From positions 1 to 42,592 of the forward strand of contig JBFMBF010000009.1 in assembly GCA_040755315.1 (NCBI GenBank): a stretch of DNA of 42,592 nucleotides, in the 5' to 3' direction. This document shows positions 8,755-41,759 of this stretch, one piece after another. A program made the translations under genes and the position numbers. Each line of letters starts with the position of its first letter. Within the stretch, counting starts at the first letter, position 1. This DNA is from Candidatus Hadarchaeota archaeon. Lineage in GTDB: Archaea > Hadarchaeota > Hadarchaeia > Hadarchaeales > Hadarchaeaceae. The notes below the pieces were generated by a model that did no database searches, was not told the origin of the DNA, and saw only the letters and a program-made list of their open reading frames with translations.

Positions 8755-8766
8755 CCTGACCCCCGC

Positions 8767-14752: not shown

Positions 14753-15844
14753 GTGGACCTTTCTGTTGAGATATGCGGCTTGAAGCTCCGGAATCCTATC
14801 CTGCCTGCCGCCGGCCCAAACGTTATGGATGGCAACACACTTGTGAAGGCTGCCGAGGGAGGAGCGGGTGGACTGGTCGCGAAGACTGTGGGCGTTAAGC
14901 ACGCCGAGGTTCCACGCCCCTGTATAGTAAAAATCAAAGACAGTCTGTTAAACTGCGAGTTCTGGTCGGACATTCCTTTGGAAAAATGGATCAAAACAGA
15001 GTACCCAAAAGCTAAAAAGACGGGTCTTCCTCTTATCGCAAGCATTGGATACCGCGCGGAGGAAATTAGGGAAGTTGCCCCGAAAATTGTTGATGCCGGG
15101 GCAGATGCATTAGAGCTTTCGACACAATACTTGGGGAACGACCCAACATCAGTTGCTGAAGCCACGGAGGCGGCCAAAGAAGTCGTGAAAGTTCCAATCT
15201 TCATAAAGCTGAGCCCGAATGTACCCGACATAATACAGTTCGCGGAGGCCGCGGAAAAAGCTGGAGCGGACGGGATAGTTACTGTAAACGCGTTTGGACC
15301 GTGTTTGGCGATTGACATTGAGAACGCCATGCCGATGCTCGGGAGTGCCCACGGCTACGGCTGGCTCTCTGGGCCTTCAATAAAACCCCTTGCAATAAGG
15401 TGCGTTGCGGACATCGTGCGGTCCGTCAAAATACCAGTAATAGGTGCTGGGGGGATATCCAACGGACGTGACGCTATTGAGTTCATAATGGCCGGAGCAT
15501 CAGCGGTCCAAGTGTGCACGGCTGCCATTGTGAGGGGACCAAAAGTTTACGGGATAATGGCCGATGAGATGGGCAAGTTCATGCGGGCCAAGAACTACAA
15601 CGCAATCGAAGACATGAGGGGGGCCGCCCTTAAACACCTCCCAGAACAGCCGCCTCACACGACTGCGAGCCCTGTTGAAGTGATAGAATCCAGGTGTACC
15701 GCATGCGGCCTATGCGAGCGCCACTGCCCCTACGACGCAATCCACGTGAAGGGTAAAGTGGCCCGAGTTGATCCCGCAAAGTGCTACACCTGCGGACTCT
15801 GCGTCTCTGTTTGCCCAACCAGAGCCATCAGGTACTCTTGGTAA
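14753..15844 (+). CDS. Dihydroorotate/dihydropyrimidine dehydrogenase-like FMN enzyme with C-terminal 2x[4Fe-4S] domain
   Basis: LRNPILPAAGP, AKTV, KLSPN, GWLSGP, GAGGI, GASAVQVCT, two CxxCxxCxxxCP motifs. Confidence 0.85.
   Translation: MDLSVEICGLKLRNPILPAAGPNVMDGNTLVKAAEGGAGGLVAKTVGVKHAEVPRPCIVKIKDSLLNCEFWSDIPLEKWIKTEYPKAKKTGLPLIASIGYRAEEIREVAPKIVDAGADALELSTQYLGNDPTSVAEATEAAKEVVKVPIFIKLSPNVPDIIQFAEAAEKAGADGIVTVNAFGPCLAIDIENAMPMLGSAHGYGWLSGPSIKPLAIRCVADIVRSVKIPVIGAGGISNGRDAIEFIMAGASAVQVCTAAIVRGPKVYGIMADEMGKFMRAKNYNAIEDMRGAALKHLPEQPPHTTASPVEVIESRCTACGLCERHCPYDAIHVKGKVARVDPAKCYTCGLCVSVCPTRAIRYSW
15783..15844 (+). repeat. Left 62-bp direct repeat (3' end of the DHOD-like gene)
   Basis: 53/62 identical to 20673-20734, with the first 28 nt exact. 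Confidence 0.9.
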
Positions 15845-15870
15845 CGTTGTGCTCGTCTAAAACAAACTGT

Positions 15871-17193
15871 CTAAAAACGCCTCCAAAGTTCTGAAGCCAA
15901 TTGAGTGGTTTTTTGAGCGATGGATTTCTCGTCTAGCCCTACCAATTTTTTATCGTGCATCAAAATTTTTCCGTTACATATTGTCGTGTCTACCGTTGCA
16001 TCAACCAGCCCAAAGATCAGATGGCCTAAAAAGTTGTTCTCATTCAAGATGGTGGGGGAAAGGTAGTCCACCAAAATTATGTCAGCTGGAGCACCACTTT
16101 CTATTTTTCCTACGCTCCAGCCAGTTGCCCTTTGCACAATTTTGGGGTTGTTTTCCAAAAGCATTGCGGGCGCTTCCAAAAATGCAACCCGCGGGTCTTG
16201 CTTTACGTGGCGATGGAGGAGGTATGCACATCTCATCTGAGCAAGCATGTCTGAGTTCATCCCATCTGTGCCCAAGCCTACTTCAATCCCTTTTCTCATC
16301 ATCCCCAAGACGTCGGCGCAGCCCACGGCATTGTTCATGTTTGATTCTGGGTTGTGAACCACGTTTGTGCCTGTGGCTTTCAAAGTGTCCATCTCTTTTT
16401 CATTGATGTGGACGCAGTGCACAGCGATTGATTTCTCTCCCAATGCACCATGTGAATTCAACCTTTCGATCACCCTCATGTTGTATTTTTTCACATTTTC
16501 ATCTTGGTCTGCTTTGTCCTCGGCGCAATGAACGTGGATCCCGACTCTGAATTTTTTTGCGAGCTGAACAGACCTGTCCAGTGTATCATCATTCACCGTA
16601 AATGCGGCGTGTAGACCGACCATTCCTTTCACGAGTTGCGACGGTTTGGATTTAAGCAGGGAAAGGAAGCGTTCGTTTTCTTTCAGCCCCTCTTGCCCCT
16701 TCCCGTAGCGGTCAGATGTTCCAAAACACAGAGAGGCCCGGATTCCAACTTCCTCCACTGCCCGGGCGATTTCATCCAGGCTCCCCCTTTGAAAAGATTG
16801 GCTTTCGTGATGGTCGATAATTGTGGTGGTTCCATTTCTCACGCACTCGATCAGGGGAACCAACGAGCTGTAGTAAATATCCTCCTTGGTCAGAGCGTTG
16901 TCCAACTTCCACCATAGCTTCTCCAATATTTCCACAAAATTCTTCGCGGGCTCGCCTGGGATTGCCATTCCCCTGGCAAAAGTGGAATAGAGGTGATGAT
17001 GGGTACAAATCAGGCCCGGCATTACTACCTTTCCTGTCGCGTCAATGACTTCCTCGACCCGGTGCTTTCCGCCAGCTTCTTTTTCAACACTTGTGATTTC
17101 TCCATCCTGAATGGCCACATTTCCTCGCTTGAGAATCCGTCGTTCATTGTCCATCGTTACTATTAACCCGTTTTTTATCACTATACTTGTCAT
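15871..17193 (-). CDS. ssnA: Putative aminohydrolase SsnA
   Basis: ICTHHHLYSTFARG, ILEKLWWKLD, HNPESNMNNAVG; directly downstream of ygfK. Confidence 0.88.
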   Translation of the reverse strand: MTSIVIKNGLIVTMDNERRILKRGNVAIQDGEITSVEKEAGGKHRVEEVIDATGKVVMPGLICTHHHLYSTFARGMAIPGEPAKNFVEILEKLWWKLDNALTKEDIYYSSLVPLIECVRNGTTTIIDHHESQSFQRGSLDEIARAVEEVGIRASLCFGTSDRYGKGQEGLKENERFLSLLKSKPSQLVKGMVGLHAAFTVNDDTLDRSVQLAKKFRVGIHVHCAEDKADQDENVKKYNMRVIERLNSHGALGEKSIAVHCVHINEKEMDTLKATGTNVVHNPESNMNNAVGCADVLGMMRKGIEVGLGTDGMNSDMLAQMRCAYLLHRHVKQDPRVAFLEAPAMLLENNPKIVQRATGWSVGKIESGAPADIILVDYLSPTILNENNFLGHLIFGLVDATVDTTICNGKILMHDKKLVGLDEKSIAQKTTQLASELWRRF

Positions 17194-17236
17194 GTGGTTC
17201 CTCCACCTAACATTGATTTGCAAGTTGTCATAAAAA

Positions 17237-20200
17237 CTATTGGCTTCGGGCAAATGGCAGGAATGGCAAAGATGTTGTAACCCCTTTTAGGATTACGTAC
17301 ATCTCTGCTGGGCCAACCAAAGAAAACTCTCCTTTGAAATCCTTTTTCAATTCCATACGCTTAATTCTAAAATCGGGAGACAATTCAAGTCTCACCCACT
17401 CGTTTTCAAACGTCATTTCTTTGGTCCCGTTCCCCATGAACAGACTTGACTCTTTTCCGTTCTCCCGCCTTCGGATGATCCACTCCTCCCCTTTTCTCTC
17501 GATGTGAAAAGCGTTGTCGTCTTCTCTTCCAAAGTCACTCCTCTCAAAGAACAGCTTGGGCTTGTCCATGTAAGGTTTTCCATTGTGCACGCAGAAGGTC
17601 GCGCAGTTGCCACACTGGTTGCAAAAGTCTTGGACATGGAGAATCTGCCTAGTCTGTGAAATTCGGAAAATCTCATCGCCGGACTCCTTTAATTCTCCCT
17701 GTCGGCTGGAGACCTTGGGTAGCCTCAGACTCGTGGGGGAAACAAAGAAAGTGTAATTAGCCCGATTGGGGCACACCTCCACGCACTTGTCGCAAAAGCT
17801 GGAGCATTGCATGCACCTTTCTGCCTCTTCCTGCGCCTCTTTTTCCGTCAACACTGCCTCGACAAGGTCAAAGCCGCCGCGCTTTTCTGGAGGGAGCATG
17901 GATCTCTTGTGCTGTGCCTCTTTTCTCGCTCGGACGCGTTTCACCTGCACGATGTCTTCTTTTGAAAGTGCTGAAAGTTTCCTATCTGGCAAACCAGCTT
18001 TTACGCCCAACTGTCGGCAGATTGCCTCTGCAGCCCGCCTTCCGTCAGCGCACGCCGCGATGATGGTTTCTGGCCCCCGAACGACATCCCCTCCAGCATA
18101 GACCCGCTCATGCCCTGTGAGCCCGGTCTGAGGGTCCACGACAATTGTGCCGTCATTGTTCAGGGAAATTGAGCTTTTGTTGAAGAGGGAGACATCTGGA
18201 CGCTGCCCGATGCCTGCTATTATGGAATCGGCCTCAATTTGGAATTCACTGCCTTCGATGGGAACTGGCCTTCTCCTACCGTCTGGGCCAGCCGATCCCA
18301 GTTTGTTCCGGATGCACTCTAAGGCCGCGACCCTGCCGTTATCGAGGATAATTCTGTTGGGTGCGGCCAGCTCTTCTATAGTTATTCCTTCCTCGAGGAG
18401 TTCCTCAACCTCCTCTTCTGCGGCCGGCATCTCCTCGCGGGTCCGCCTGTAGACTACGACCACCGGCCCGCCTGTGAGCCGCTTGGCCGTCCTAGCAGCA
18501 TCCATGGCCGTGTTCCCACCACCTATCACCAGAACTCTTTTGCCCAAGTCAACCCTTTCGCCCCGGCTCACCCGCTCTAGAAAATCGAGGGATTTGTAAA
18601 CTCCCTTTCCATCTTCACCTTCGATACCTAGGCGGGCGTCTTGTGAGAATCCCGATGCTACGTAAACGGCGTCGAAATTTTGATTTAGAAGCTCCTCAGG
18701 GGGCGTGGAAATGGGATGGGAAAGCTCGATCTTCACGCCCAGCTTCTTTATGCGCTCGATGTCAGTTTCTACGACCTCTTTTGGCAGTCTGAATGCTGGA
18801 GCAATGGCCAACATTCCACCTGGCCGGTCTTTAGCCTCATAGACCACCGCTTCAATCCCATTAACTGCCAAGAAGTAGGCTGCAGCCAGCCCAGCGGGGC
18901 CACTGCCAATCACTGCGACCTTGTGACCACTCTTTTCTGCTACCTTAACAGTTGCCTTCCCCTTCTCGGCGGCGAACCGCTTCAGCGCCCGGATGGCTAC
19001 GGGCTCGTCGTAGTTGTTTCGCGTGCATCTGGTCTGGCATAGATGGGTGCAAACGTAGCCTGTTACCATGGGCAACGGATTGCGAGATAGAATAATCTCC
19101 AATGCCCTATCGTATTCTCTCTGGGAAATCATCCGCGCGTACTCTGGCACATCCTGGAGGACTGCACACTGCTCCATGCAGGGGGTATTGACGCAATCAA
19201 ACAAGTCCAGCTTTGATTCGACCTTGGGGAGACCATATGGATGGTAGCTCTTTTTGTATCGCGGGTCATCCAAGGCCCGAGCTGCCTCAAGTTCTAGGTT
19301 GGCCAGCTTGTTCTTGGCGAGTTCCTCCAAGCTCTTAACTCCCCGGCTGCGCATATCCCTTTCCAAGTTTTCCAAATATTGGGTCGAATTGGCGTAACCG
19401 CCTGGTTTTAGAAGATCGGAGACTGTGGATATAGACCAAGCGCCGGAGGATAGGATGGACGTGACATTCAGCGCGTCGGCGCCTGCAGAGAAGGAGACTT
19501 TCAGGTCGCCGCCAAACTCTTTGGAGAGCTTGTGGAATAGATTGATGGTTATTGGGTAGAGTGCGCGTCCCGACATGTACATTTCATTGCCGGGGAGATT
19601 GCTCTTGTGATTTACCGTGGCTAAGGTGTTGCTCAGCTTGACCCCAAAAATCAGGCCCCGTTCATTGGCGACCTTCTGCAGGGCCCTGATCAATTTAACT
19701 GCAAGGTCATACTTCAGATCGTGCTCGAACACGGCGTCGGGGATGTTGATCTCCTTAAAACCAAGTTGGTCGTGGAGGATGCTAATCACCTTATCTTTGC
19801 CCAGCAGAGTTGGGTTCAGTTTGACAGTCGTGTGAAGCCCCCTTTCTTCCATCAGGTGCCTGCTAATTTTTTCTATTTCACCAGGGGGGCAGCCGTGCAT
19901 TGTAGAAAGGGTAACGCTGTTTACGATTTTGGCGGGAATCTCTATGTCAGCGAACTGGGGGAACTTTTCTTTCAAAACCTTCCTAATTTCGGAGATTTCC
20001 TTGGACGCGTCTTGCAGCCTGTCCATAAAATGGACCATTGGGGGACTCTGGATTCCTTTCAAATCATAACCGACGCTCATGTTGAAGACAGTTCCGATGG
20101 GAACTTTGCCTTCAAAGCCGAGGATTCTATGAAGAATGTGGATCAATGCCCAGGCCTTTACGTACTCCCACGCGGATTGGTCTAGCTTGAGCTCCTGGGA

Positions 20201-20533
20201 AAATTCCACGTTGTACCCTTCGTCCTCCATGTCGATGCAGGGCCGGGGAATCGTCAGTTCATCCATTATCTGCACTGTTTTCAGCTCAATGAACCTGGCA
20301 CCACATAACCACGCGGAAACGATGTTCTGTGCAAGTTGGGTATGGGGGCCCGCTCCCGGCCCGATCGGCGTAGCCATGTACTGCCCAAAAACGTTCGGGT
20401 TGGCATGGGGACTGTCCTTTTTTGGGGTATAGAAAAGAGCGCGTTGGATCCCAAAGATGGACTGGTTCTCTTCAAGCTCCGTAAGAATCCAGTTTAGGAG
20501 CACTTCAAAGGATTGGGGTTTCATGTCGTCCAA
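17237..20533 (-). CDS. ygfK: YgfK-family Fe-S flavoprotein oxidoreductase
   Basis: GPGAGPHTQLAQNIVSAWLCGARFIELKTVQ, STMHGCPP, KLNPTLLG, GSGPAG, GGGNTAMD, CNQCGNC. Confidence 0.92.
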   Translation of the reverse strand: MDDMKPQSFEVLLNWILTELEENQSIFGIQRALFYTPKKDSPHANPNVFGQYMATPIGPGAGPHTQLAQNIVSAWLCGARFIELKTVQIMDELTIPRPCIDMEDEGYNVEFSQELKLDQSAWEYVKAWALIHILHRILGFEGKVPIGTVFNMSVGYDLKGIQSPPMVHFMDRLQDASKEISEIRKVLKEKFPQFADIEIPAKIVNSVTLSTMHGCPPGEIEKISRHLMEERGLHTTVKLNPTLLGKDKVISILHDQLGFKEINIPDAVFEHDLKYDLAVKLIRALQKVANERGLIFGVKLSNTLATVNHKSNLPGNEMYMSGRALYPITINLFHKLSKEFGGDLKVSFSAGADALNVTSILSSGAWSISTVSDLLKPGGYANSTQYLENLERDMRSRGVKSLEELAKNKLANLELEAARALDDPRYKKSYHPYGLPKVESKLDLFDCVNTPCMEQCAVLQDVPEYARMISQREYDRALEIILSRNPLPMVTGYVCTHLCQTRCTRNNYDEPVAIRALKRFAAEKGKATVKVAEKSGHKVAVIGSGPAGLAAAYFLAVNGIEAVVYEAKDRPGGMLAIAPAFRLPKEVVETDIERIKKLGVKIELSHPISTPPEELLNQNFDAVYVASGFSQDARLGIEGEDGKGVYKSLDFLERVSRGERVDLGKRVLVIGGGNTAMDAARTAKRLTGGPVVVVYRRTREEMPAAEEEVEELLEEGITIEELAAPNRIILDNGRVAALECIRNKLGSAGPDGRRRPVPIEGSEFQIEADSIIAGIGQRPDVSLFNKSSISLNNDGTIVVDPQTGLTGHERVYAGGDVVRGPETIIAACADGRRAAEAICRQLGVKAGLPDRKLSALSKEDIVQVKRVRARKEAQHKRSMLPPEKRGGFDLVEAVLTEKEAQEEAERCMQCSSFCDKCVEVCPNRANYTFFVSPTSLRLPKVSSRQGELKESGDEIFRISQTRQILHVQDFCNQCGNCATFCVHNGKPYMDKPKLFFERSDFGREDDNAFHIERKGEEWIIRRRENGKESSLFMGNGTKEMTFENEWVRLELSPDFRIKRMELKKDFKGEFSLVGPAEMYVILKGVTTSLPFLPFARSQ

Positions 20534-20672
20534 ACTACCACTCTTTGGACTAGAATTGTCTGTATAAAAATCTTTTATCCCTGGCCCTTACGTTGACGCT
20601 GAAAACTACGATAAACTTTTAATCATCTGTCTCAACAAGAATTCGGTCAAATGGCGAAGTACTCTGTCAATG

Positions 20673-20734
20673 GCTACACCTGCGGACTCTGCGTCTCTGT
20701 CTGCTCAACTGGGGCCATCAGACACTTGTGGTAA
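20673..20734 (+). repeat. Right 62-bp direct repeat (orphan copy of the DHOD-like gene 3' end)
   Basis: Encodes YTCGLCVSVCSTGAIRHLW* and lies 10 nt before ATG 20745. Confidence 0.9.
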
Positions 20735-20744
20735 GCGGGTCGTT

Positions 20745-21266
20745 ATGTTGGAGATTCTTTTCTGGTCCATTCTCATTTTCCTCGCCAGACTAATCGATGT
20801 CTCCATGGGCACGATGAGGATGATACTCCTCGTCAGGGGGAGGCGAGGGATAGCGGCCGTTTCATCGTTCTTTGAAATAATGATTTGGATACTGGCGGTG
20901 AGCCGTGTAATCACACAACTGGACAACTGGTATTACATTTTTGCCTTCGCCCTTGGCTTTGCCTCCGGGAACTTCCTCGGGAGCTACATAGAGGAAAAAA
21001 TTGCTCTCGGCTACATGTTCGCGTACATAGTCCCGAAAAAACGCGCTAAAAATTTAGCCGATGAACTCAGAAGAGCTGGATTCGGGGTGACGGTTGTGCC
21101 GGGACACGGCTTGAAAGGCCTAGAGATGGTTTACAATGTTTTCTTTAAGCGCCGAGACACGAAGAAGCTTATGGAAATTGTAAAAAAACACGACTCTTTT
21201 TTCACAATGATTGACGTGAGGACCGAGCGCGGAGGTTATTTTGGGAGCGCGCGCAAGGGAAAGTAA
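20745..21266 (+). CDS. UPF0316/DUF2179-like membrane protein
   Basis: IFLARLIDVSMGTMRMI, FFEIMIWILA, LRRAGFGVT. Confidence 0.82.
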   Translation: MLEILFWSILIFLARLIDVSMGTMRMILLVRGRRGIAAVSSFFEIMIWILAVSRVITQLDNWYYIFAFALGFASGNFLGSYIEEKIALGYMFAYIVPKKRAKNLADELRRAGFGVTVVPGHGLKGLEMVYNVFFKRRDTKKLMEIVKKHDSFFTMIDVRTERGGYFGSARKGK

Positions 21267-21275
21267 GGGACAAAA

Positions 21276-22085
21276 ATGATAGGGGATATCAAGCTTCTCA
21301 ACATGGCCGCCGAGCGTTTGGAGAGAGGACTGAAAATAGGGGTCTGCACTGTGGTGGAAAAGATAGGCTCTGGTCCGTCGGAAGTGGGTCGGAAAATGTT
21401 GGTGTCAGAGGATGGAGAGATTATCGGAACCATAGGCGGCGGCGAGTGCTTTGAACGTGCGCTTGTGCAAGCGGCACTTAAGGCCGTCCGGAAAGGCAGG
21501 ACAAAGAGCGTCAAGTTCTCTTTTTATGGAGGGGCGAAAGAAGGTGAGCTGGACACAGGACTGTGGTGTGGAGGAGCGATGACGGTGTTTGTGGACGTGG
21601 TCGAACCAACCCCCAAGCTGGTGATCATAGGGTCTGGGCACGTTGCTCTGCCGACATACAAGGTGGCGGAAATGCTGGGATTTGATGTGACGGTCGTCGA
21701 CGACAACGAGGACACCCTGACCAAGAAGAGGTTTCCAAACGCGAAGCTGGTTTTTAACCGGGACTTTGAAAAGGCCCTGAAAAAGTTGAAGGTTGACAAA
21801 AATGCTTACGTGGCGATAGTGCACGGGGAACCAAGGCACGACCTTGCAGCCCTGCGAAGGTTCATCAAGATGGACGTGGCCTACCTTGGGGTTCTCGGCA
21901 GCGGGCACAAGATAGCCAAGCTGAAGAAAATCTTGGCAAAAGACGGAGTTGCAAAGAAGAAAATCGACGCCGTGAGTGCCCCCATAGGGCTGGACCTGAG
22001 CGCCAGGACCCCAGAGGAAATCTCCATAAGCATAGCCGCTGAACTGGTAAAGGAACGAAGAACCAGCCGCAGGAGCGCGAAATAA
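21276..22085 (+). CDS. xdhC: XdhC/CoxI molybdo-hydroxylase maturation factor
   Basis: GTIGGG, CGG, IIGSGHVA, YLGVLGS, APIGLDL..RTPEEI. Confidence 0.9.
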   Translation: MIGDIKLLNMAAERLERGLKIGVCTVVEKIGSGPSEVGRKMLVSEDGEIIGTIGGGECFERALVQAALKAVRKGRTKSVKFSFYGGAKEGELDTGLWCGGAMTVFVDVVEPTPKLVIIGSGHVALPTYKVAEMLGFDVTVVDDNEDTLTKKRFPNAKLVFNRDFEKALKKLKVDKNAYVAIVHGEPRHDLAALRRFIKMDVAYLGVLGSGHKIAKLKKILAKDGVAKKKIDAVSAPIGLDLSARTPEEISISIAAELVKERRTSRRSAK

Positions 22086-24625: not shown

Positions 24626-24626
24626 A

Positions 24627-28648: not shown

Positions 28649-29292
28649 ACCTTACCAGTAGTTTTTTTGCGTTTTTTCTTCTCGCCGACACTTGGTTCCA
28701 GAATTAAGCCCGCCCTCTTCAACGACTTGAACATCTCCCTCAGCGTCCTCTTCTCCTTTATCTTGCCTTCGACGAGCACTAGGATTGTGATGGCCCCGAC
28801 TATCACGTAAAGCATCCAAGGCTCCGGTAGAAACCCTCCGACGCTTGAAAGCGCGACTGTCCAGAAGATGCTGGATGCTGCTGCGCCGGCCGCCACGGAA
28901 AAGAATATTGTCGACAATTTTATGTTCATGATGGAGGCGAGGAGTGCCGCCCAAGAGACGCCCAGAAGGAAGGTGAAGCCGAAAACCGCTGTGCCAAGGC
29001 TCCATCCCTTGAACTTGCGCTCGAACTCCTCCAGACCCTTCATGGCAACTTTTTCCAGCCTTTTCGTCGCCTTTATTTTGCCGAAAACCACTCTGGTGAT
29101 GCGGTTGAAGTAGTGGAACTCGTATCTCAGCAGCCGCAGTATCCCGAACCAAACCGGCACCAGCGCCACGTGGAGGGCGCTGACGATTGCCGCGGTTTCC
29201 AGCGGAGGGATGCCGTTCGCCAGCGAATAAGATGCGCCTGCCATCGGGCCGAACAGGAAGAGTATGCCGAACAGCCACAGGGCAACTTCCAT
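28642..29292 (-). CDS. Membrane protein, possibly small multidrug export (COG2426)-like
   Basis: Several hydrophobic helices; ATG 29292 follows GGTG. Confidence 0.6.
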   Translation of the reverse strand: MEVALWLFGILFLFGPMAGASYSLANGIPPLETAAIVSALHVALVPVWFGILRLLRYEFHYFNRITRVVFGKIKATKRLEKVAMKGLEEFERKFKGWSLGTAVFGFTFLLGVSWAALLASIMNIKLSTIFFSVAAGAAASSIFWTVALSSVGGFLPEPWMLYVIVGAITILVLVEGKIKEKRTLREMFKSLKRAGLILEPSVGEKKKRKKTTGKVH

Positions 29293-29378
29293 TTTGACAC
29301 CGATTACTCTCTCGCGAAAACCTATAAACAAATGTTGTTTGCGCTCGCCTGCTGGGATGTCAAACGTTTGCCACGCTA

Positions 29379-30609
29379 TTATGCCAAACGTTCACCACGG
29401 CCTGCAATGAATCTCAAACGTTTGCCACCATTTATACGAGCCAAAACTTCCAGCACAGTTCTGGTCGTAAGTCCAGTATATCTGGCGATATCGTGCTTGG
29501 TTTTCAAGCCAATTTTAATTGCTGTTTTAACTTTCATCTCGTTCTCATGCGGGTTTGTCCTTAGAGGCTGAATTTTGACTGCCGCAGAAAGACGACTCGC
29601 CAGCTCTTTCCCTAACTCGGTGACTGAATATGTAGTGTGGAAAGATTGATTTTTGATCAACAGTCCTCGTCGAATTAATTCTCTAATCCGCCACAATGTT
29701 GATTCTTTAGATATTTTAAGTATCGATGCCAGTTCTCCGCTCGTAAAATTCCGTGAGAACTCGTTTGAGGCAACCAATGCAATTTCCCACGCTGCTGCCT
29801 TGTAAGAGTTGCAAACGCTCTCGAGCCTTTGCTGATGAGTTGCCATTGCAATGCCAACCTCCCGCAATTTCAGCAAATCTTCTCGTTTGCCTATCCTCAA
29901 GTAATACTTGTCGCCGTAATCTGGCACATGATAAGTGAAGACACTGGACTTTACATCGCTCGCTCAACAAACGTTGCATATCCTTCATGAACGAAAAATC
30001 GCAGCTGTGTAATCTCACTTCCTTCTTGCCCGTTGTGGGATTGCAAACAGAACCTTCCATTGCAAAAACTTCACTCACATAAACTTTCACCACACTTTGG
30101 GGAGAATTGAATACCCACTGCGGTATACTTTAAGCGTCTACAGACGTTGGTACGCCAAAAAAATCATGCATAAATGTGGCCAGCGTTTTGTTTGCCACTT
30201 GGAGTATTGTAGTCCCTGTTTTGTCAATCCATGTACGCACATGTTGGATACCAAAAAGTTCTTGCAGCAAATCCTTAAACACAATTATTTTTGTTGGATC
30301 TTTTTTCTGACTGAACATAACTGAATTGATGTCTTTTGGTATAGACCCATCTGGCATCATCCCAACTAGCAGGGCAACTTTTTCATCCAGAGAAAACGGG
30401 ACACTGACAACAATTCCATTTCTACACCTCCCCAATAAAAGAAACAATTTATCGCTACTCAGTCTTTTTACTGAAAAACATGCCAAATCATCAAGCGTCA
30501 ACTTATGGTACACTTTTTCACCGTTCATTAGGGGTCGTGCTTTTTTAAGCCGATTTTGGGGAGAGAAGTCAGCGAAAGTATTGTTTCGGAAAAATACGAA
30601 AGCAACCAA
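29379..30609 (-). pseudogene. Two-motif LAGLIDADG (DOD/WhiA-like) endonuclease with C-terminal wHTH, disrupted
   Basis: LLVGMMPDGSI and YVSEVFAMEGSV motifs; in-frame TAA at 30130-30132; frameshift near 29958; HTH-like segments ELASILKIS..TLWRIREL and HDIARYTGLTTRTV; visibly AT-rich. Confidence 0.72.
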
Positions 30610-30620
30610 ATATGGAGGGA

Positions 30621-30725
30621 TAGCGGGGGGTGGAATCTCCGAAAGCGGCCTTGCGCCACTTCCTCTTGAACCACCGACCTCCGGGTTATGAGCCCGGCGG
30701 GCACTCCATGCTGCCCTACCCCGCT
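30621..30725 (-). tRNA. tRNA-iMet(CAT) with a 30-nt intron at position 59/60
   Basis: AGCGGGG acceptor stem (A1-U72), CCGGG-CTCATAA-CCCGG anticodon arm, GGTGG-TTCAAG|intron|T-CCACC; CCA not encoded. Confidence 0.93.
30635..30664 (-). other. BHB-type tRNA intron in the T-loop
   Basis: AGGAAGTGGCGCAAGGCCGCTTTCGGAGAT; bulges AGA and ATT, relaxed central helix TTCA/GGAG, 9-bp intron stem. Confidence 0.85.
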
Positions 30726-30765
30726 ACCACAACTTCTTTCTCATCTGGGGTAAAATGGCTTGCGC

Positions 30766-31290
30766 TCAAGCCTTGGCCGGTGGCGCCTGCGCGACCGTCG
30801 CCGGGGAAATCAGCTTTCGCAGCATCCCGCCCAGCATCGCCCCAGAACCGACCACCGCGATTATGAAAAAGATGTCGAGGATTGTGGCAATCATCAGCGA
30901 CGACAGCAGCTCCTCGGCAGCAACAGTGCGGCCCAGCGTCTGCGTGAGCGTGGAAAGTATTGGAGAAACCCCGCGGATTACAAGCGTGGCCGCGTTTGAA
31001 ATGACAAGGCCTGCCTCAAGCAGCAACCCGTTGACGGCCCCTGCCCTGAAGTGGCTCCATCCCGCCGCAACCTCACGCGATAGGAAATATCCCGTCAGGA
31101 CCCCGCCGAGCAGGTAGGAAAGAAGCCAAGCTTTAAAGAGTATCAGACAACCACCGCCGAAAACCACCCCGTAAACCACCGGCTTGAGGTAGCGCTTCCT
31201 GTCTAGGCCCCTTGACATCAGGAACAGCGACACCTCTAGCACCAGGCCCGCGGTGACGCTGTAAATCAGGAAGAACTGCGCGTCGTCCAT
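30766..31290 (-). CDS. Hypothetical multi-pass membrane protein
   Basis: 174 aa, Gly-rich hydrophobic helices. Confidence 0.65.
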   Translation of the reverse strand: MDDAQFFLIYSVTAGLVLEVSLFLMSRGLDRKRYLKPVVYGVVFGGGCLILFKAWLLSYLLGGVLTGYFLSREVAAGWSHFRAGAVNGLLLEAGLVISNAATLVIRGVSPILSTLTQTLGRTVAAEELLSSLMIATILDIFFIIAVVGSGAMLGGMLRKLISPATVAQAPPAKA

Positions 31291-31354
31291 GCATCGCCCT
31301 ACGCGGCGGCGGATAAACGGCTTTTGTCTGCCAAGAATCAGGATTGGCTGTACA

Positions 31355-31961: not shown

Positions 31962-32080
31962 TTGTTTAACCTCTATTTAACTTTTTACAGTTCCGCCATC
32001 CATTTTCGCACAATCATCCGACGGAGCTTTGGGTGAGGGGCCTATATAAAGGGAAAAATTTCAGGTTGATGGGTATCTCG

Positions 32081-34036: not shown

Positions 34037-34073
34037 ATTTTTCTCGGGGGCGCTGCAAACCGCTTCGGGCAAG

Positions 34074-34886: not shown

Positions 34887-34973
34887 GCACACATGTGTTC
34901 CTCCGGTAAGAATAAAGTTTGGCGACGACGCCATAGTGCCTAATAGCCTGTGCGCCAAATTCAGTTGGAAAAG

Positions 34974-35651: not shown

Positions 35652-35656
35652 GCGGG

Positions 35657-35710
35657 ATGACGGGCAAAGTCGTGCTCATCAGGGGCTGCTCAGGCGGCAT
35701 CGGCTACTCC
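35657..35710 (+). pseudogene. N-terminal fragment of a short-chain dehydrogenase
   Basis: MTGKVVLIRGCSGGIG resembles the SDR TGxxxGIG start, then runs into the convergent gene. Confidence 0.5.
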
Positions 35711-35740
35711 AGATCTCTTTACTTGGCCGCCGCTACTTGT

Positions 35741-36793: not shown

Positions 36794-36795
36794 CT

Positions 36796-39129
36796 TCACA
36801 ACTTCTTTTCCTTCAACGCCTTCAGCACTCGCTCGGGCGTGAACGGCGACTCGTAGAGCCTGATTCCAACGGCATTGTAAATAGCGTTGGATATCGCCGG
36901 CAGGGCCCCGTTTATGCAGACTTCCCCGGCGCTCTTCGCCCCGTAGGGCCCGGAAGGCTCGTAGCTGGGCACGAGGATGGAAATTATCTTTGGGACATCA
37001 GCTATCGTGAAAATTTTGTAGTTGGCGAAAGACGGGTTGAGCACCCTTCCGTTGCCGTCAAATATGAACTCTTCAGTCAGGGCATAGCTCACGGCGTTCA
37101 GGACAGCTCCCTCGGCCTGCCCCTCCGCCAGCCTCGGGTTGATCGGGGTCCCGCAGTCGAGGGCGACCACGTAGCGCGGGACGGTCACCTGCCCGGTCTC
37201 TGTGTCCACGACCACCTCGACAAAGTGAACTGCGTATGACTGTGGTGGCATTGGACTGAACCGCGAAGCCGTGGCGGAAATCTGGAACTGGTTCCTGCCG
37301 TAGAACGCCCTGCCGGCTATCTGGCTGTATTCCACCCGCTCTCCCGTGCTGACCGAGACCACTCCCTTGTTTTCCACCCTCAGGTTCTCCTTCGGCTCGC
37401 CGAGCATCTCAGCCGCGACGTGTAGTATCTGTTCTTTTATCTTGTGAGCTGCATCAAAAACCACTGCACCCGTGAGGTAGGTTGTGCCCGAAGCGTAAGC
37501 GCCCTTGTCGAAAGGAGTGATATCAGTGTCAGAGACATACGGTATGACGTCCTCGAGCGGGATGTCCAGAACCTCGGCGAATATCTGCGAAAGGACTGTG
37601 TCGGCCCCCGTCCCGAGATCAGTGGCACCCATCAGGAGGTTGAAAGAGCCGTCGTCATTCATCTTCGCGAAAACCGATGCCATGTCTATGAAAGGAACAG
37701 TCGCCCCTTGGACGGTACAGACCATCCCGACCCCTCTCATCAGCTTGCCTTCCTTCTGCTTGCTGTACTCCTCCCGCTTCTCCCTCCAGCCAAACATCTC
37801 CGCGCCCTTCCTCACGCACTCCGGGAGTGAGCAGCTCTTGATTGTCATGGCCACACCTTTCCCGACCTCGCCCAGCTTTTCGAATATCGGGTGGGTGTCG
37901 CCCTCCCTGACGGTGTTTTTCAGCCAGAAGTCGACCGGGTCCATCCCCACCGCCTCGGCCATCTCGTCCATCATCACCCCCATCGGGAAGGAGGCCTCGA
38001 ATACTCCGTAACCCCTGTAGGCACCCGCCTGCGGCAGGTTGGTGTAGACAGTGTCTCCGACGAACTTGATGTTGTTGCACTTGTAAAGAGGCAGGGTCTT
38101 CGCGCAGCAGTTGCTCATTACTGTCATCGCGTGGGAGCCGTAAGCCCCTGCGTTGCTGATGACCTTCATGGAGATGGCCGCCAGACTCCCGTCCTTCTTC
38201 ACGCCGCTTTTCAGCCAGAATGCCATCTGGTGCCTCGTCCTGGAGCTGACGAACACCTCCTCCCTGCTGAGGACCAGCCTGACGGGCCGCTTCGTCCTTA
38301 GTGTCAGCATCCCGCAGACGTCCTCAAGAAGCATCTCCTGTTTGGAGCCGAAGCCCCCGCCTATCCTTGGCTTTATCACCCTGACCATCCTCTCCGGTAT
38401 TTCCAGACATTGGGCAACTATCCTCCTGACGTGGTACGGGACCTGGGTGCTTGAGCGGACCACCAGGCGGCCGCCGGGGTCAAGATAGCTGATGCACGAG
38501 TGGGGCTCCAGGGCGCAGTGCTGCCCGTAGTGGTTCTTGAACTTGCGCTCGATGACGAAATCCGCATCCTTGACTCCATCATCGAAGCTACCCGCCTCCA
38601 AGTCGATGTGGGCGCAGTGATTGTGCTTCGGGTCATAGAAGACGGGGATGATATACTTGCAGTCGGGCTCATCGTGTATCACCGGCGCGCCCTCGTCCAT
38701 CGCCCTCTCGAGGTCGAAGATTGCCGGCAGCGGCTCATAGTCCACCTTGATTAGCTTCAAGGCCTTCTCGGCTATCTCCTCTGTGTCGGCGGCCACCGCG
38801 GCCACCCTGTCCCCGACATGCCTGACCTTGTTGTCGAACATCACGGTGTCGTAAGGTGAGGGCTCTGGCCACCCCTGCCCGGCGGTCGTGTGAATGACCC
38901 GCGGGATGTTCTTGTAGCAGATGACGGCGCGAACTCCCGGTAGGGCCTCGGCTTTTCTTGTGTCAATGTCCTTGATCAAGGCGTGCGGGTGCGGACTCCA
39001 GAGAATTTTCGCGTGCAGCATCCCGGGGAGTGTGAAGTCGTCCGTGTATAATGGTTTCCCCATGGCAAGCGGGATGGCGTCTATCTTGCGCGCGTCCTTC
39101 CCGACAACTCTACCTGAAAAAACCTTCAT
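36796..39129 (-). CDS. Xanthine dehydrogenase-family molybdopterin subunit (XdhD-like)
   Basis: SSTQVP, IGGGFGSKQE, AYRGYG, DLGTG, AYASG, AEGQAEG, GAKSAGE. Confidence 0.92.
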   Translation of the reverse strand: MKVFSGRVVGKDARKIDAIPLAMGKPLYTDDFTLPGMLHAKILWSPHPHALIKDIDTRKAEALPGVRAVICYKNIPRVIHTTAGQGWPEPSPYDTVMFDNKVRHVGDRVAAVAADTEEIAEKALKLIKVDYEPLPAIFDLERAMDEGAPVIHDEPDCKYIIPVFYDPKHNHCAHIDLEAGSFDDGVKDADFVIERKFKNHYGQHCALEPHSCISYLDPGGRLVVRSSTQVPYHVRRIVAQCLEIPERMVRVIKPRIGGGFGSKQEMLLEDVCGMLTLRTKRPVRLVLSREEVFVSSRTRHQMAFWLKSGVKKDGSLAAISMKVISNAGAYGSHAMTVMSNCCAKTLPLYKCNNIKFVGDTVYTNLPQAGAYRGYGVFEASFPMGVMMDEMAEAVGMDPVDFWLKNTVREGDTHPIFEKLGEVGKGVAMTIKSCSLPECVRKGAEMFGWREKREEYSKQKEGKLMRGVGMVCTVQGATVPFIDMASVFAKMNDDGSFNLLMGATDLGTGADTVLSQIFAEVLDIPLEDVIPYVSDTDITPFDKGAYASGTTYLTGAVVFDAAHKIKEQILHVAAEMLGEPKENLRVENKGVVSVSTGERVEYSQIAGRAFYGRNQFQISATASRFSPMPPQSYAVHFVEVVVDTETGQVTVPRYVVALDCGTPINPRLAEGQAEGAVLNAVSYALTEEFIFDGNGRVLNPSFANYKIFTIADVPKIISILVPSYEPSGPYGAKSAGEVCINGALPAISNAIYNAVGIRLYESPFTPERVLKALKEKKL

Positions 39130-39133
39130 GCGC

Positions 39134-39595
39134 TCACCTCTTCGTCCTCTCCGCGGCCAGGTTCACAGCGTCAATCAGCTTCATGTATCCTGTGCAGCGG
39201 CAGAGAACCCCGTCCAAGGCCTTCTTTATCTCGTCCTCGCTCGGGTGCGGGTTTGAATCAAGCAGGGCCTTTGTCGAGAGAATCATGGCCGGAGTGCAGA
39301 AGCCGCACTGGACCGCGCCAGCGTCCGCGAACGCCAGCTGGATGGCGTGGGGGCGCTCGTCCTTGCTCAGACCCTCTATCGTGGTTATCTCCCTGCCACT
39401 CGCCTGCGCCGCGAACATCAGGCATGACTTGACCGGCTTTCCGTCGACCAGGACGGTGCAGACGCCGCACTCCCCCGTGCCGCAGCCGTTCTTCACCCCA
39501 TAGTAGCCCTCGCGCCTGAGCACATGGAGGAGCCTCTCATGGGGCTCGAAGACCAGCTTTTTCTCCTCGCCGTTTATCTTGCAGATTATTTCCAC
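39134..39595 (-). CDS. Xanthine dehydrogenase-family 2Fe-2S subunit
   Basis: GCGTGECGVCTV, QCGFCTP, CRCTGY. Confidence 0.95.
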   Translation of the reverse strand: MEIICKINGEEKKLVFEPHERLLHVLRREGYYGVKNGCGTGECGVCTVLVDGKPVKSCLMFAAQASGREITTIEGLSKDERPHAIQLAFADAGAVQCGFCTPAMILSTKALLDSNPHPSEDEIKKALDGVLCRCTGYMKLIDAVNLAAERTKR

Positions 39596-40387
39596 TCACT
39601 CGCCTCCCACAACATCCGCTAGGGCCCTGCGCAACAGCACCCCAAGAACTTCTCTCATGTAGTCCTCGCTGGCGAGGATGCTTTTGTATATCGGCAGGCT
39701 CGGTAGATGATTTTTCACTGCTGATTCCACCGCTTCCGGCGCCATCCCCTCAAGCTCCCACTCGAGCTTCTTCAGGCGGCCGAGCCTGCAGTTGCCAGAT
39801 ACCGCCAGCCTGACCTTTGAGATGTTCTGTTCTGCCATCTCAGCGTAGGCAGCCACAGTCAGGATTGAATAATCTGTCTTTGTCCTTGCGAACTTGATGA
39901 AGCTGCCCTTCCCCGGGAGGCTCCTCGGGAGGACGACCTCTTTTATCAGCTCGCTGCTCTTTTGCCTAGCGCCCAGGAACTTTTCGAGCGGGACCGGGCG
40001 CTTTCGGCCAGCCGTCAAAATCTCGGCGTCCAGCACAAGCAACGCGGGAGGGAGGTTGGCCCACGGGAACCTGCACGCGATGTCCCCACCGACAGTAATC
40101 ATGTTTCTAAGGGGAGTGTCCGACAGTGTCGAGCAGGCGGCGCGCAATATTCCCGACGCAAGCCCGGCCGCCTCCGACTTCTCCAGGTCTGAGATAGTCG
40201 CTCCGGCGCCGATGTGAATGTTGTTTTTGTCTGCCTTGATGTAGCCCAGCCCCAGTCGCGTGATGCCCACGAGGTGGGAGACTTTTGGCTGCCTGGTGAA
40301 AGATGTCGCCCCCGCCACCGCGATGCTGGATGACCTCCTGAGCAGCCTTGCCGCCTCGGCCAAGTTCTTCGGGTGGTGAAACTCCAT
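39596..40387 (-). CDS. Xanthine dehydrogenase-family FAD subunit
   Basis: HPKNLAEA, AGAT, IGAGATI, RNMITVGGDI. Confidence 0.88.
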   Translation of the reverse strand: MEFHHPKNLAEAARLLRRSSSIAVAGATSFTRQPKVSHLVGITRLGLGYIKADKNNIHIGAGATISDLEKSEAAGLASGILRAACSTLSDTPLRNMITVGGDIACRFPWANLPPALLVLDAEILTAGRKRPVPLEKFLGARQKSSELIKEVVLPRSLPGKGSFIKFARTKTDYSILTVAAYAEMAEQNISKVRLAVSGNCRLGRLKKLEWELEGMAPEAVESAVKNHLPSLPIYKSILASEDYMREVLGVLLRRALADVVGGE

Positions 40388-40450
40388 TCAACCTCCTCCG
40401 ATGACCATCCCAACCCAGATATCGTCGCCGTCTTTTAACGTTTTGTTCAG
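40386..40450 (-). repeat. 65-bp orphan copy of the moaD 3' end
   Basis: 64/65 identical to 41527-41591; carries GGAGGAGGTTGA-ATG for the FAD subunit. Confidence 0.93.
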
Positions 40451-40490
40451 ACTGGTAGGTTTGCCATCACTTGCTGGGCATCCCACAAAC

Positions 40491-40532
40491 TATTTAAATT
40501 TTGAAACAGTTGTTTAAATAATGAAACAGTTG
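40491..40532. promoter_or_regulatory. Candidate promoter/operator of the MNT-HEPN pair
   Basis: Inverted TATTTAAA...TTTAAATA (40491-40520) and direct repeat TGAAACAGTTG at 40502 and 40522. Confidence 0.5.
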
Positions 40533-41069
40533 ACCAAAAAAGAGCTGGATGTACTGGCCCACTTTTTCGAGGACCCAATGGAAGAGGTTTACCTGCGCGA
40601 ACTTGCCCGCAGGATAAAGATGAGCGCGGCCACCGCCATGCGCGCCACCCAACTTCTGGTCAAGAAAAACCTGCTTGTGAAACGTGTAGAAAGGAACGCC
40701 ACATATTTCAAAGCCAACATCACGCCGGAGTTCAGGGAGATGAAAAAGGCCCACACGGTATCAAAGATATTCGACGCTGGGGTGGTTGGCCTGATCAGGG
40801 AAAGGTCGGCTGGTCTGGCATCCATGCTGCTTTACGGAAGCGCCGCAAAAGGGGAAGACAGCCCCGACAGCGACTATGACTTTCTTGTCATAGCTTCAAG
40901 GTGCGATGTAAATTCTGACGAGCTTTCGGGAAGGCTCGGCAGGGAAACCAACCTCAAAGTGTTCGACGCCGCGGGGTGGAAAAATGTTTCCAAGAAAAAC
41001 AGGGCCTTTTACTTGGATGTTATAAGCAACTCTATACCACTTTACGGTGAAAAGCCGGTGATAGATTGA
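40521..41069 (+). CDS. wHTH-fused minimal nucleotidyltransferase (MNT antitoxin)
   Basis: YLRELARRIKMS HTH; LYGSAAKGEDSPDSDYDFLV. Confidence 0.88.
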   Translation: MKQLTKKELDVLAHFFEDPMEEVYLRELARRIKMSAATAMRATQLLVKKNLLVKRVERNATYFKANITPEFREMKKAHTVSKIFDAGVVGLIRERSAGLASMLLYGSAAKGEDSPDSDYDFLVIASRCDVNSDELSGRLGRETNLKVFDAAGWKNVSKKNRAFYLDVISNSIPLYGEKPVID

Positions 41070-41503
41070 CCCTGAACGAATGCTTCGCTTCTGGAAAACT
41101 GCGCAGGATACGCCCAGACATGCTCAAAGCAACAAAATCTCTTGAAGCCGCGGAGGCGAAGTTGAATGGGGCAAAAGCGCTGATGGATGACAACCATGCG
41201 GACGCTGCCCTCTTGTACGCCTACGCCAGCATGTTTGGGGCGGGGAGGGCAATCCTGTACAGAGACGGAATTCAGGAAAAATCCCACTACTGTCTGGCAA
41301 AGTACTTGGAGGAAAAATACTTGAAAACCGGAAAAATAGACCCTGGACTCATCACGCTGCTCAACACGTTCCGTGAGGAAAGACATGAAATCATGTACGG
41401 GTTCGCGGAAGTTGCTGTGAGAAAAGAGGAGGCAAAGGAAGCGATATCAACTGCTGAAAAATTTCTACTAAAAGCTAAGGAACTTTTAAGCAAGAAAATT
41501 TGA
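41066..41503 (+). CDS. HEPN-domain protein (toxin partner)
   Basis: AYASMF..GRAIL, KSHYC, REERHEIMY; 4-nt overlap with the MNT gene. Confidence 0.85.
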   Translation: MTLNECFASGKLRRIRPDMLKATKSLEAAEAKLNGAKALMDDNHADAALLYAYASMFGAGRAILYRDGIQEKSHYCLAKYLEEKYLKTGKIDPGLITLLNTFREERHEIMYGFAEVAVRKEEAKEAISTAEKFLLKAKELLSKKI

Positions 41504-41528
41504 AGTTGCGATTTTGGAATGGTGGGAT

Positions 41529-41759
41529 TCAACCTCCTCCGATGACCATCCCAACCCAGATATCGTCGCCGTCTTTTAACGCTTTGTTCAGGCCGACGAG
41601 CTCACCGTTGACGAAGACCCGCAGCGGTTCCATCTCGCCCTCCTTGAAGTCCAGCCTGAGAAGCATCGCCCTGACTGTTGTCCCTTCCGGAAGCTCTAGC
41701 TCGAGCTTTTCCTTGCGCTGCTGGCGTAGCCCCGGCATGAGCTCGACTTTTACTTTCAT
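41529..41759 (-). CDS. moaD: MoaD/ThiS ubiquitin-like sulfur carrier
   Basis: 76 aa, VFVNG, LKDGDDI, C-terminal GGG. Confidence 0.85.
   Translation of the reverse strand: MKVKVELMPGLRQQRKEKLELELPEGTTVRAMLLRLDFKEGEMEPLRVFVNGELVGLNKALKDGDDIWVGMVIGGG

Follow-up and report, generated by a model that had tools for sequence, protein, structure and literature searches.

How do toxin-antitoxin pairs and other small sets of genes manage to move with no transposase or integrase? [quoted passage not shown] Integron cassettes are small, often toxin-antitoxin pairs with their own promoter, and are inserted without target duplication. Examples of tyrosine-integrase islands are given in PMC2853133 (section 10) and in passages of PMC7002104, archaeal integrons are the subject of PMC9668308, and parts of PMC2884548 describe homology-facilitated illegitimate recombination in naturally competent bacteria, which replaces resident DNA. 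[quoted passage not shown] 2000), and passages of PMC3457768 recognise it also for "other DNAs". In PMC2853133, the duplications vary in length from 24 to 423 bp (Table 3), a start or stop codon is often covered by the repeats, which leaves the target intact, and an operon-like structure holds one of the insertions. The screen left no archaeal case. Its authors leave the mechanism unresolved, propose DNA breakage, and state that release and re-infection lack experimental evidence.

Two insertions in one archaeal window

The window (the whole 42,592-nucleotide stretch of archaeal DNA analysed) carries two direct repeats that a preliminary description had read as two insertions of the same geometry. 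Features are collected in Table 1. Both repeats are real, each with two copies in the within-contig listings. Event 1 pairs 15783-15844 with 20673-20734 (62 nt, 85% identity, 9 differing positions), and event 2 pairs 40386-40450 with 41527-41591 (65 nt, 98% identity, 1 mismatch). In both, the target gene is intact, its stop codon lies inside the repeat, and the cargo is antisense to the target, SsnA and YgfK to the dihydroorotate dehydrogenase (DHODH)-ferredoxin gene and the MNT-HEPN pair to the ThiS/MoaD-family gene. The cargoes are unrelated, one metabolic (SsnA-YgfK) and one a toxin-antitoxin pair (HTH-nucleotidyltransferase plus HEPN). So much of the common geometry stands, but the agreement of 62 with 65 is accidental. 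The event 1 duplication aligns over about 90 nt, because its displaced copy continues beyond 20673-20734 in a decayed 5' extension to about 20645, which makes up the 5' third. Each copy had also been said to end with the stop, which is indeed included, but the thiS repeat extends 2 nt beyond it, into the ATG of the next gene.

Table 1. Features of the two insertions, in positions of the window
Feature	Position	Strand	Basis or remark
Target gene 1, intact: PreA-like dihydroorotate/dihydropyrimidine dehydrogenase carrying a 4Fe-4S ferredoxin domain at its C terminus	14753..15844	+	Pfam DHO_dh and Fer4; NCBIfam PreA E 3.5e-63 (under the cut-off)
Event 1 repeat, in-gene copy (family D16): final 20 codons and stop	15783..15844	+	
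Cargo 1: SsnA aminohydrolase	15871..17193	-	NCBIfam NF005540 and TIGR03314 above cut-off; start taken from sequence
Cargo 1: YgfK (putative selenate reductase subunit)	17237..20524	-	TIGR03315, 1011 bits against a cut-off of 835
AT-rich spacer, TATA-like boxes in both directions	20525..20644	.	Sequence; kept in G002
Event 1 displaced copy of DHODH 3' end	20645..20734	+	Profile match E 1.2e-11
Downstream genes DUF5698 and xdhC	20745..22085	+	
Event 2 downstream gene: FAD subunit, xanthine-dehydrogenase-like operon	39596..40387	-	Pfam FAD_binding_5
Event 2 displaced copy	40386..40450	-	Carries the single substitution
TATA-like TTAAAA inside the repeat	40433..40438	-	51 nt upstream of downstream ATG
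Cargo 2: promoter/operator region	40451..40520	+	
Cargo 2: HTH and minimal nucleotidyltransferase (MNT-type antitoxin)	40521..41069	+	Pfam MarR_2, NTP_transf_2; PADLOC PDC-M05A E 1.3e-20
Cargo 2: HEPN protein (putative RNase toxin)	41066..41503	+	Pfam HEPN E 1.8e-14; PADLOC PDC-M05B
Event 2 repeat, in-gene copy	41527..41591	-	Identical to the single copy at the G002 empty site
Target gene 2: ThiS/MoaD-family sulfur carrier, intact	41529..41759	-	Pfam ThiS E 6e-8

Empty sites, which the description had proposed as a check, are found in relatives for both events. In genome G001 and in genus g11, DUF5698 directly follows DHODH and the ssnA-ygfK block is absent; in the window the block makes up an insert of 4828 bp between the repeats. 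Event 1 also occurs in the same-genus genome G002, where the second repeat copy is heavily decayed, and its duplication is old. From its sequence, the AT-rich spacer would hold putative promoters that serve ygfK on one side and, on the other, the genes displaced downstream. In genera g2 and g12 ssnA likewise lies behind DHODH, but with other partner genes, and this blurs the polarity of event 1.

The insert of event 2 is 1076 bp and holds only the MNT-HEPN pair and its promoter. It is absent from G002, whose thiS ortholog is 92% identical and where a single 65-bp stretch (8742-8806) is matched by both copies of the window. The FAD-subunit gene adjoins thiS in G002, G026, G032 and L333, and in none of these, nor in L334, is an MNT-HEPN pair found beside thiS; L333 and L334 are the two loci examined out of five in a metagenome search with ThiS, both without cargo. 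The displaced copy retains the original thiS-stop/ATG junction with a GGAGG ribosome site. With one mismatch in 65, event 2 is recent, and the age gap between the two events is great, event 1 being common to G002 and event 2 absent there.

A conserved TATA-like box lies within the thiS repeat, an observation new here, and is a candidate internal promoter. Its Leu codon TTA is kept in 6/6 thiS homologs, TTA being 2.7% of the Leu codons in this genome. Since the 65 bp reach back just past the box, the xanthine-dehydrogenase-like operon would keep both promoter and ribosome site.

Counts, lengths and ends

Within the genome (G000), 7 genes among 1263 ends tested have their 3' end copied in intergenic DNA downstream (repeat-protein region excluded), compared with none among 1288 mid-gene segments and 1 among 1268 start segments. 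In relatives, direct repeats bracket 18/94 toxin-antitoxin or ATPase loci and 0/97 control loci; among the 18, L107 and L158 match paralogs, and two others, L298 and L196, are doubtful. With three doubtful cases dropped, the enrichment has a Fisher p of about 1e-5, in which kin are not independent. About 1 in 6 of the sampled loci is bracketed, with empty sites in close relatives, and the insertion pattern is common across one archaeal family. These counts go against independent chance events, which had been kept open, and bear out the claim of a recurrent, integrase-less process that inserts genes and leaves the target gene whole, with further cases in the genome and its relatives. Assembly artefact or chance repeats could be suspected in a 50-contig assembly, but the copies are not identical in either event (9 differing positions in event 1 and 1 in event 2), the event 1 layout and the event 2 empty site are seen independently in G002, and the control loci are clean; we consider this explanation extremely unlikely.

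For lengths and orientations, we curated a set of 32 cases, after dropping 12 of the 44 listed repeat pairs that were weak matches, nested second copies or perhaps remnants of paralogs (the C24 second pair, the C27 27-mer, C3, C8, C19, the second pairs of L268 and L183, L298, L249, L251, L196 and L140). Some of the curated repeats may be paralog remnants or repressor operators, and the empty site was checked in only 4/32; those of rnpB and of tyrA/pheA are found in G002. Targets are the 3' ends of 11 protein genes and 3 tRNAs, 5 5' ends, and 11 sites elsewhere, with RNase P also represented. The repeats range from 19 to 171 bp (median 59 bp).

This set bears on the model of the preliminary description, by which gene 3' ends would be recognised by an undescribed trans-acting enzyme that duplicates some 60-65 bp and sets the cargo antisense. 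The median, the compact cargo and the rank of 3' ends as the largest assignable class agree with it, and such an enzyme may be missing from view because the genome is incomplete (86.6%). Its rules do not hold: only 5/32 lengths fall at 58-69 bp, event 1 is longer, the cargo is sense in 7 and antisense in 6 of the 13 3'-end cases, targeting is not exclusive to 3' ends, and the bias towards them is explicable by selection (see below). No shared cargo-end motif is found among the 32 cases beyond toxin-antitoxin promoters, nor a shared hairpin head; 8/64 flanks fold with z < -2, with no structure beyond operators. We therefore regard this model as very unlikely.

A Pfam scan of the 39 window ORFs finds no integrase, transposase or reverse transcriptase (RT) family, in agreement with the preliminary description, which had also correctly reported that the cargo ends lack terminal inverted repeats; 0/32 cases have at least 8 of 12 matching terminal bases. 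The only tyrosine recombinase found for G000 is the integrase of an integron that lies on a different contig (C40). G000 also encodes one Y1 and two DDE transposases and a Cas1, and has no match to the RT (RVT_1), serine resolvase or TnpB families. The three transposase loci lack long flanking direct repeats, and their ends match no cargo end except for a TATA-like 17-mer. A unit mobilised by an IS or MITE was rejected on the missing inverted repeats and conserved ends and on these transposase loci, and retro-insertion because cargo 2 includes its own upstream promoter region and RVT_1 has no match in G000, a genome 86.6% complete. A 30-bp periodicity, an idea taken from archaeal histone footprints, was not found in the 32 lengths, judged by eye.

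Origin and spread of the inserts

In our view both events are probably insertions in which a long target stretch of variable length was duplicated, with no dedicated integrase at work. Foreign DNA would be joined into the chromosome at a break, with ends that are not sequence-specific at the joining step, and repair would re-copy 20-170 bp of the target, bracketing the insert; a staggered break that is filled in, or a template switch in replication, would either one give such a duplication. Duplication is the outcome observed, and host break repair its likeliest mechanism; we infer the repair step by exclusion, because no donor is close enough to read junction microhomology. Selection would give the gene-end pattern, inserts in a genome that is 91% coding surviving if the duplication spans a stop, a start and promoter, or an RNA gene end. 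A targeting enzyme is not required for this, which makes the pattern less surprising. Once next to a conserved gene end, the block would then spread to relatives by ordinary homologous recombination there, perhaps in linear form as a filled allele or in circular form after excision between the repeats, and the second repeat copy would decay.

Homologous MNT-HEPN pairs lie at thiS and at the G002 tRNA-Ser, with related pairs at tRNA-Sec and at several protein-gene ends; the best homologs have 72-75% DNA identity. In the promoter region of cargo 2, 26 nt are 96% identical to the same region of the tRNA-Ser cassette. Junctions differ between homologous cassettes: the promoter element that they share is preceded by 33 nt in the window and by 7 nt in L098, and the corresponding lengths are 31 nt in L112 and 20 nt in L116. 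The cargoes, about 1.0-1.2 kb for MNT-HEPN, are trimmed tightly to promoter and genes; as a counterpoint to break repair, they are tidier than random fragments would be.

The inserts might instead be what is left of integrase islands: a virus or plasmid would have integrated site-specifically into each gene end, made it whole again through the attachment site that it carried, and since shed all but addictive or useful genes. The geometry of tyrosine integrases is alike, with tRNA cases in PMC2853133, and tRNA 3' ends are the targets in 3/32 cases here. Yet event 2, recent as it is, contains nothing except the pair with its promoter, a separate integrase would be needed for each of more than 20 unrelated targets, 5' ends and intergenic sites are duplicated too, and no integrase family occurs among the cargo genes scanned, a part only of those in relatives. 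Searching with the antitoxin gave one weak bacterial locus in genomes and no viral one. We find this origin quite unlikely, and weak for protein-gene targets.

The ssnA-ygfK block shows how an insert may travel. Compared with genera g3 and g7 at four-fold sites, the two flanking genes have an identity of 0.22-0.34 but ssnA and ygfK one of 0.51-0.61, the same as they have to same-genus G002 (0.58-0.59). In g7 the block again lies behind DHODH, with a DHODH-end copy beyond ygfK for which the best of 30 ends are those of G001 and G004 (scores 78 and 72), its own gene scoring 45. On comparison of sequences, these results show movement of ssnA-ygfK between three genera into the same site, which is new here, and the apparent re-entry at that site in other genera is the comparative evidence added by event 1. 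G021 and G026 are assembled in pieces, and the full layout was read across two contigs.

Homology alone might then account for everything, if the donor already had the gene end beside the cargo and a single crossover or one-sided strand invasion brought it in, with no new duplication ever made. This fits event 1 and the tyrA case, in which a low-GC pheA is placed exactly before the native pheA, now an internally deleted remnant. It also fits the thiS repeat, identical between G000 and G002 while 0/3522 neighbouring 65-nt windows are (mean 8.2 mismatches), and the most conserved of 47 gene ends; promoter constraint partly explains that identity. Homology cannot create new neighbours, yet homologs of the event 2 pair occupy unrelated sites and no examined relative has the pair beside thiS. 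At DHODH, tyrA and pheT the in-gene copies show 8, 7 and 8 differences in 63 from G002, which is ordinary, so they do not look foreign. Homology as the only process seems unlikely to us. The earlier suggestion of a trans-acting or homology-driven capture survives in its second half, for event 1.

We put forward more tentatively, as an addition to insertion with target duplication, that the scar makes the cassette self-targeting. The copies would recombine into a circle with the cargo and one gene-end copy, and after transfer to a related archaeon the host recombinase would reinsert it behind the same gene. If true, this would be a mobile life cycle without an encoded mobility gene, and may be a route for archaeal toxin-antitoxin pairs and small metabolic blocks. 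Its footprints would be ssnA-ygfK behind DHODH in three genera, a DHODH end of foreign type in g7, and a thiS end whose 65 bp are exactly identical in two genomes that otherwise share 86% identity.

Comparison with known systems

Taken as a whole, the preliminary description is partly confirmed in its observations and partly supported in its interpretation; its suggestion of an undescribed mechanism gives way to the geometry already in Furuta et al. 2010 (PMC2853133). A literature search by title and abstract opening found no report of archaeal toxin-antitoxin genes with this insertion pattern.

Integron cassettes are alike in being small, and an integron is present in this genome on C40. The window cargoes differ in having no attC-like repeats, which are seen only on C40 and have no match to contig C9 in the self-alignment listing. 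Tyrosine-integrase islands likewise leave the gene whole on one side and a displaced 3' fragment on the other, but here there is no integrase in or beside the cargo and no single preferred attachment site per family; targets are many and unrelated, 5' ends are also duplicated, and no length is fixed. As described in parts of PMC2884548, homology-facilitated illegitimate recombination has one end anchored by homology and the other joined illegitimately, which fits the ssnA-ygfK spread and the pheA case, but there resident DNA is replaced and here it is duplicated.

With the insertions of PMC2853133, the window shares a small insert without a mobility gene, unique direct repeats matching one empty-site copy, variable length, repeats spanning start or stop codons, and insertion into an operon-like structure. 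Against the definitions used there, the inserts of 1076 and 4828 bp are below 20 kb, the duplications of 65 bp and of 62 to about 90 bp exceed 30 bp, empty sites exist (event 2 in G002; event 1 in G001 and g11 genomes), and neither mobile elements nor dispersed repeats appear in Pfam on the 39 ORFs or in the within-contig repeat listings. The cargoes, MNT-HEPN and SsnA-YgfK, include no restriction or modification gene, so they work like a restriction-modification unit but are not one, and the process cannot depend on the cargo making a restriction cut. Instead of restriction enzymes, the inserts studied here carry toxin-antitoxin pairs, AAA ATPases or metabolic genes; they sit in an archaeal host, and one block shows cross-genus transfer into the same site. 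The kind of insertion is thus already known from bacteria, and the archaeal host, the non-restriction cargo and the cross-genus transfer extend it, with many natural cases in one family.

Two insertions of different age in the window

Both direct-repeat pairs of the preliminary description are recovered in place by a repeat finder, and relatives provide the site without cargo for each. Event 2, the nucleotidyltransferase (MNT)-HEPN pair behind thiS, is a recent insertion. In G002, a genome of the same genus, thiS abuts the FAD-subunit gene with no insert, and both window copies of the repeat align to a single 65-bp stretch; the same adjacency is present in G026, G032 and the metagenome locus L333. 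The sole mismatch of the pair sits in the displaced copy, the cargo has 48.5% G+C against 57-59% in its neighbours, and homologs of the pair occupy other sites, as in G002, where the homolog lies behind tRNA-Ser and a 27-bp duplicate of the tRNA's end brackets it. The 65-bp thiS end does not differ at all between the window's genome (G000) and G002. Of 3522 windows slid along the sequence downstream of it, not one is identical (mean 8.2 mismatches). Ranked among 47 orthologous gene ends it comes first in conservation, followed by ends with values of 1 and 2; the mean is 8.5. This identity could reflect a recent exchange of the thiS tract between lineages; function probably accounts for part of it. 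A TATA-like hexamer, on sequence grounds a candidate internal promoter, begins 12 nt into the repeat and 51 nt ahead of the downstream ATG, somewhat beyond the 31-45 nt usual in this genome, and in 6/6 thiS homologs it uses the Leu codon TTA, a rare one (2.7% of Leu codons). A duplication as long as 65 bp may have survived because the candidate promoter inside it would be retained.

Event 1, the ssnA-ygfK block behind the DHODH/PreA-like gene, is old and has spread. In G001 and five genomes of genus g11, DHODH is followed directly by DUF5698, with no block. The window's second copy of the DHODH end aligns across about 90 nt rather than 62, and that of G002, which also holds the block, is far more decayed. 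Among the DHODH loci of 29 other genomes, ssnA lies directly behind in 10, and ygfK in G021. Two genomes of genus g7 (G021 and G026) have ygfK, then a decayed DHODH 3' end, then xdhC (E 1.2e-5 and 2.5e-10); compared with 30 gene ends, this copy matches best G001 (78) and G004 (72), with 45 for G026's own gene. Measured at four-fold degenerate sites, both flanking genes have identities of 0.22-0.34 to genera g3 and g7, near saturation, and ssnA and ygfK 0.51-0.61, the value also found against G002. The block has thus been transferred among three genera, in all of which it follows the same gene. This cross-genus re-entry is the most interesting part of the analysis. In genus g12, ssnA has other partner genes and an identity of 0.38-0.40, and g2 is saturated, which blurs where the adjacency first arose.

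Features of the window, of other contigs (C numbers) and of further loci (L numbers)
Feature	Location	Description
Event 1 repeats	window 15783-15844/20673-20734	62 nt, 85%; DHODH/PreA-like ferredoxin fusion ends in repeat; opposite-strand ssnA and ygfK between copies; DUF5698, xdhC and lysine genes downstream
Event 2 repeats	window 40386-40450/41527-41591	65 nt, 98%; ThiS/MoaD-family gene ends in repeat; opposite-strand HTH-nucleotidyltransferase and HEPN between copies; FAD subunit of xanthine-dehydrogenase-like operon next
Displaced DHODH end	window 20652-20734	in frame with ATG at 20652; 27-codon ORF with three ferredoxin cysteines, probably incidental
Repeat ORF	window 46-6063	2005 aa; ~208-aa internal repeats (DNA up to 99% identical) plus Trp-rich repeats of 16 aa; surface protein probable
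Low-GC stretch	window 28900-30800	40-43% at 29.5-30.5 kb; HTH gene and unassigned ORF; poor G002 alignment; search for a bracketing repeat here found none
pheT	L081:5133-7640 (G000:C24)	three 3'-end copies around AAA/DUF4143 ATPase and DUF6036 pair; middle copy fused to fragment matching cas6 3' end of G008; cas1 next
tyrA/pheA	L079:6300-9140 (G000:C11:36299-39140)	low-GC pheA, PemK-like toxin and HNH gene behind tyrA; native pheA an internally deleted remnant; G002 keeps intact tyrA-pheA-nadE
RNase P RNA gene	L078:4992-5660 (G000:C11)	ParE-type pair inside 5' end
Toxin-antitoxin array	L085:235-3420 (G000:C34)	PIN, HicAB and MazE-PIN pairs in alternation with three 200-300 bp fragments, 92-97% identical; contains 100-N gap, assembly may be imperfect
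Perfect short duplication	G000:C8:3426-3586	58 bp around 45 bp; overlaps tRNA-Asp call
Perfect short duplication	G000:C3:35618-35769	26 bp around 100 bp
Perfect short duplication	L164:2834-3043	55 bp around 100 bp
Inverted repeat	L180:1206-2956 (G049:C4)	AAA/DUF4143 ATPase in perfect 84-bp inverted repeat, unlike direct-repeat cases
Integron	L087 (G000:C40:1-7402)	integrase at 1226-2209 (TIGR02249, 470 bits), then same-strand ORFs; attC-like repeats between them near 3540, 4736, 6040, 6793
Fragmented ORF	G000:C16:18115-18700	low-GC, just upstream of short basic ORF and rpl21e-like gene; presumably LAGLIDADG-like, by motif
Clustered repeats	L069:4045-4339 (G023:C14)	near-palindromic direct repeats of 22-24 bp, located between genes for xdh large subunit and AOR

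Recurrence in the genome and its relatives

Self-comparison of G000, with gene calls from a simple purpose-made caller and the repeat-protein region excluded, yields such duplications genome-wide: 7/1263 genes are followed, in intergenic sequence, by a copy of their own 3' end, against 0/1288 mid-gene and 1/1268 start segments. Other clear examples are pheT (two inserts in series, one common to G002), tyrA/pheA (a 105-bp duplication, with an empty site in G002), the 5' end of the RNase P RNA gene (a 44-49 bp copy remains upstream; G002 has one copy, an empty site) and two intergenic cases. In relatives, an anchor gene counts as bracketed if copies of a direct repeat scoring 35 bits or more lie to either side of it; the loci considered have at least 300 nt of flank on each side. 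Bracketed loci are 6/24 for MNT, 5/27 for the DUF4143 ATPase, 2/20 for HEPN and 5/23 for ParE, and 0/28, 0/25, 0/26 and 0/18 for controls; the 18 bracketed loci include two paralog matches and two more doubtful ones. Insertion with target duplication is a family-wide pattern. With about 7 cases per 1.2 Mb, we estimate a chance of about 3% for two in one 42-kb window, or about one such window per genome, and the window is not a hotspot. The three perfect short duplications with tiny inserts may be the most recent outcomes of this process.

Lengths, targets and candidate machinery

Of 44 listed repeat pairs, 32 were kept by hand, with the empty site checked in just 4. Repeat lengths, as altered by decay, range over 19-171 bp around a median of 59, with quartiles at 45.5 and 89, and the proposed mode at 60-65 bp dissolves, with 5/32 at 58-69. 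Targets are 11 protein 3' ends, 3 tRNA 3' ends, 5 5' ends, 2 positions just past a gene and 11 others, contrary to a gene-3'-end rule. Nor is the cargo regularly antisense: where classable, 13 are sense and 7 antisense, and at 3' ends the numbers are 7 and 6. The 64 cargo-side flanks have in common just toxin-antitoxin promoter or gene-end pieces, with no inverted ends among them, as the preliminary description had noted for the window, and homologous cassettes differ in their junctions. A dedicated gene-end enzyme fits these cases poorly and is very unlikely.

The one tyrosine recombinase found in G000 is the integrase of an integron, which has a cassette array of its own. Decayed integrase islands, also a poor fit, are quite unlikely. 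Searches of this 86.6% complete genome for RT, resolvase and TnpB gave no match, and the incompleteness therefore leaves room for an unseen enzyme. G000 has one Y1 and two DDE transposases, for which we found no link to the cargo ends, and it encodes a Cas1.

Mechanism and comparison with known insertions

The comparisons establish insertion, target duplication, variable ends and, for one block, movement between genera at a single site. Homology capture alone would account for event 1 and for the pheA insertion, but new sites cannot arise from it, and we find it unlikely. Break repair combined with selection and homologous spread probably accounts for the pattern. Host repair would join foreign DNA at a break and re-copy part of the target, selection would retain insertions in which the duplicated stretch restores a gene end or promoter, and the block could then spread by homologous recombination at the copied gene end.

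The mechanism had been called possibly undescribed, yet the same geometry appears in PMC2853133, which defines insertion with long target duplication. Repeats there are 24-423 bp and often cover start or stop codons, thus leaving the target whole; one insertion is into an operon-like structure, and zero archaeal cases survived the screen. The authors propose a virus-like cycle, and state that release and re-infection are without experimental evidence. The present host is archaeal (a histone gene, with archaeal RNase P and SRP RNAs), and in the literature searched, with partial coverage, we found no report of the pattern with archaeal toxin-antitoxin cargo. The recurrent insertion process is real, as first proposed; its length, orientation and target rules fail, and it is a variant of a described process, not a new gene-end-targeting system. 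Judged by PMC2853133, the window cases share the structural features of the class and lack its restriction gene, and they therefore work like insertions with long target duplication without being RM units.
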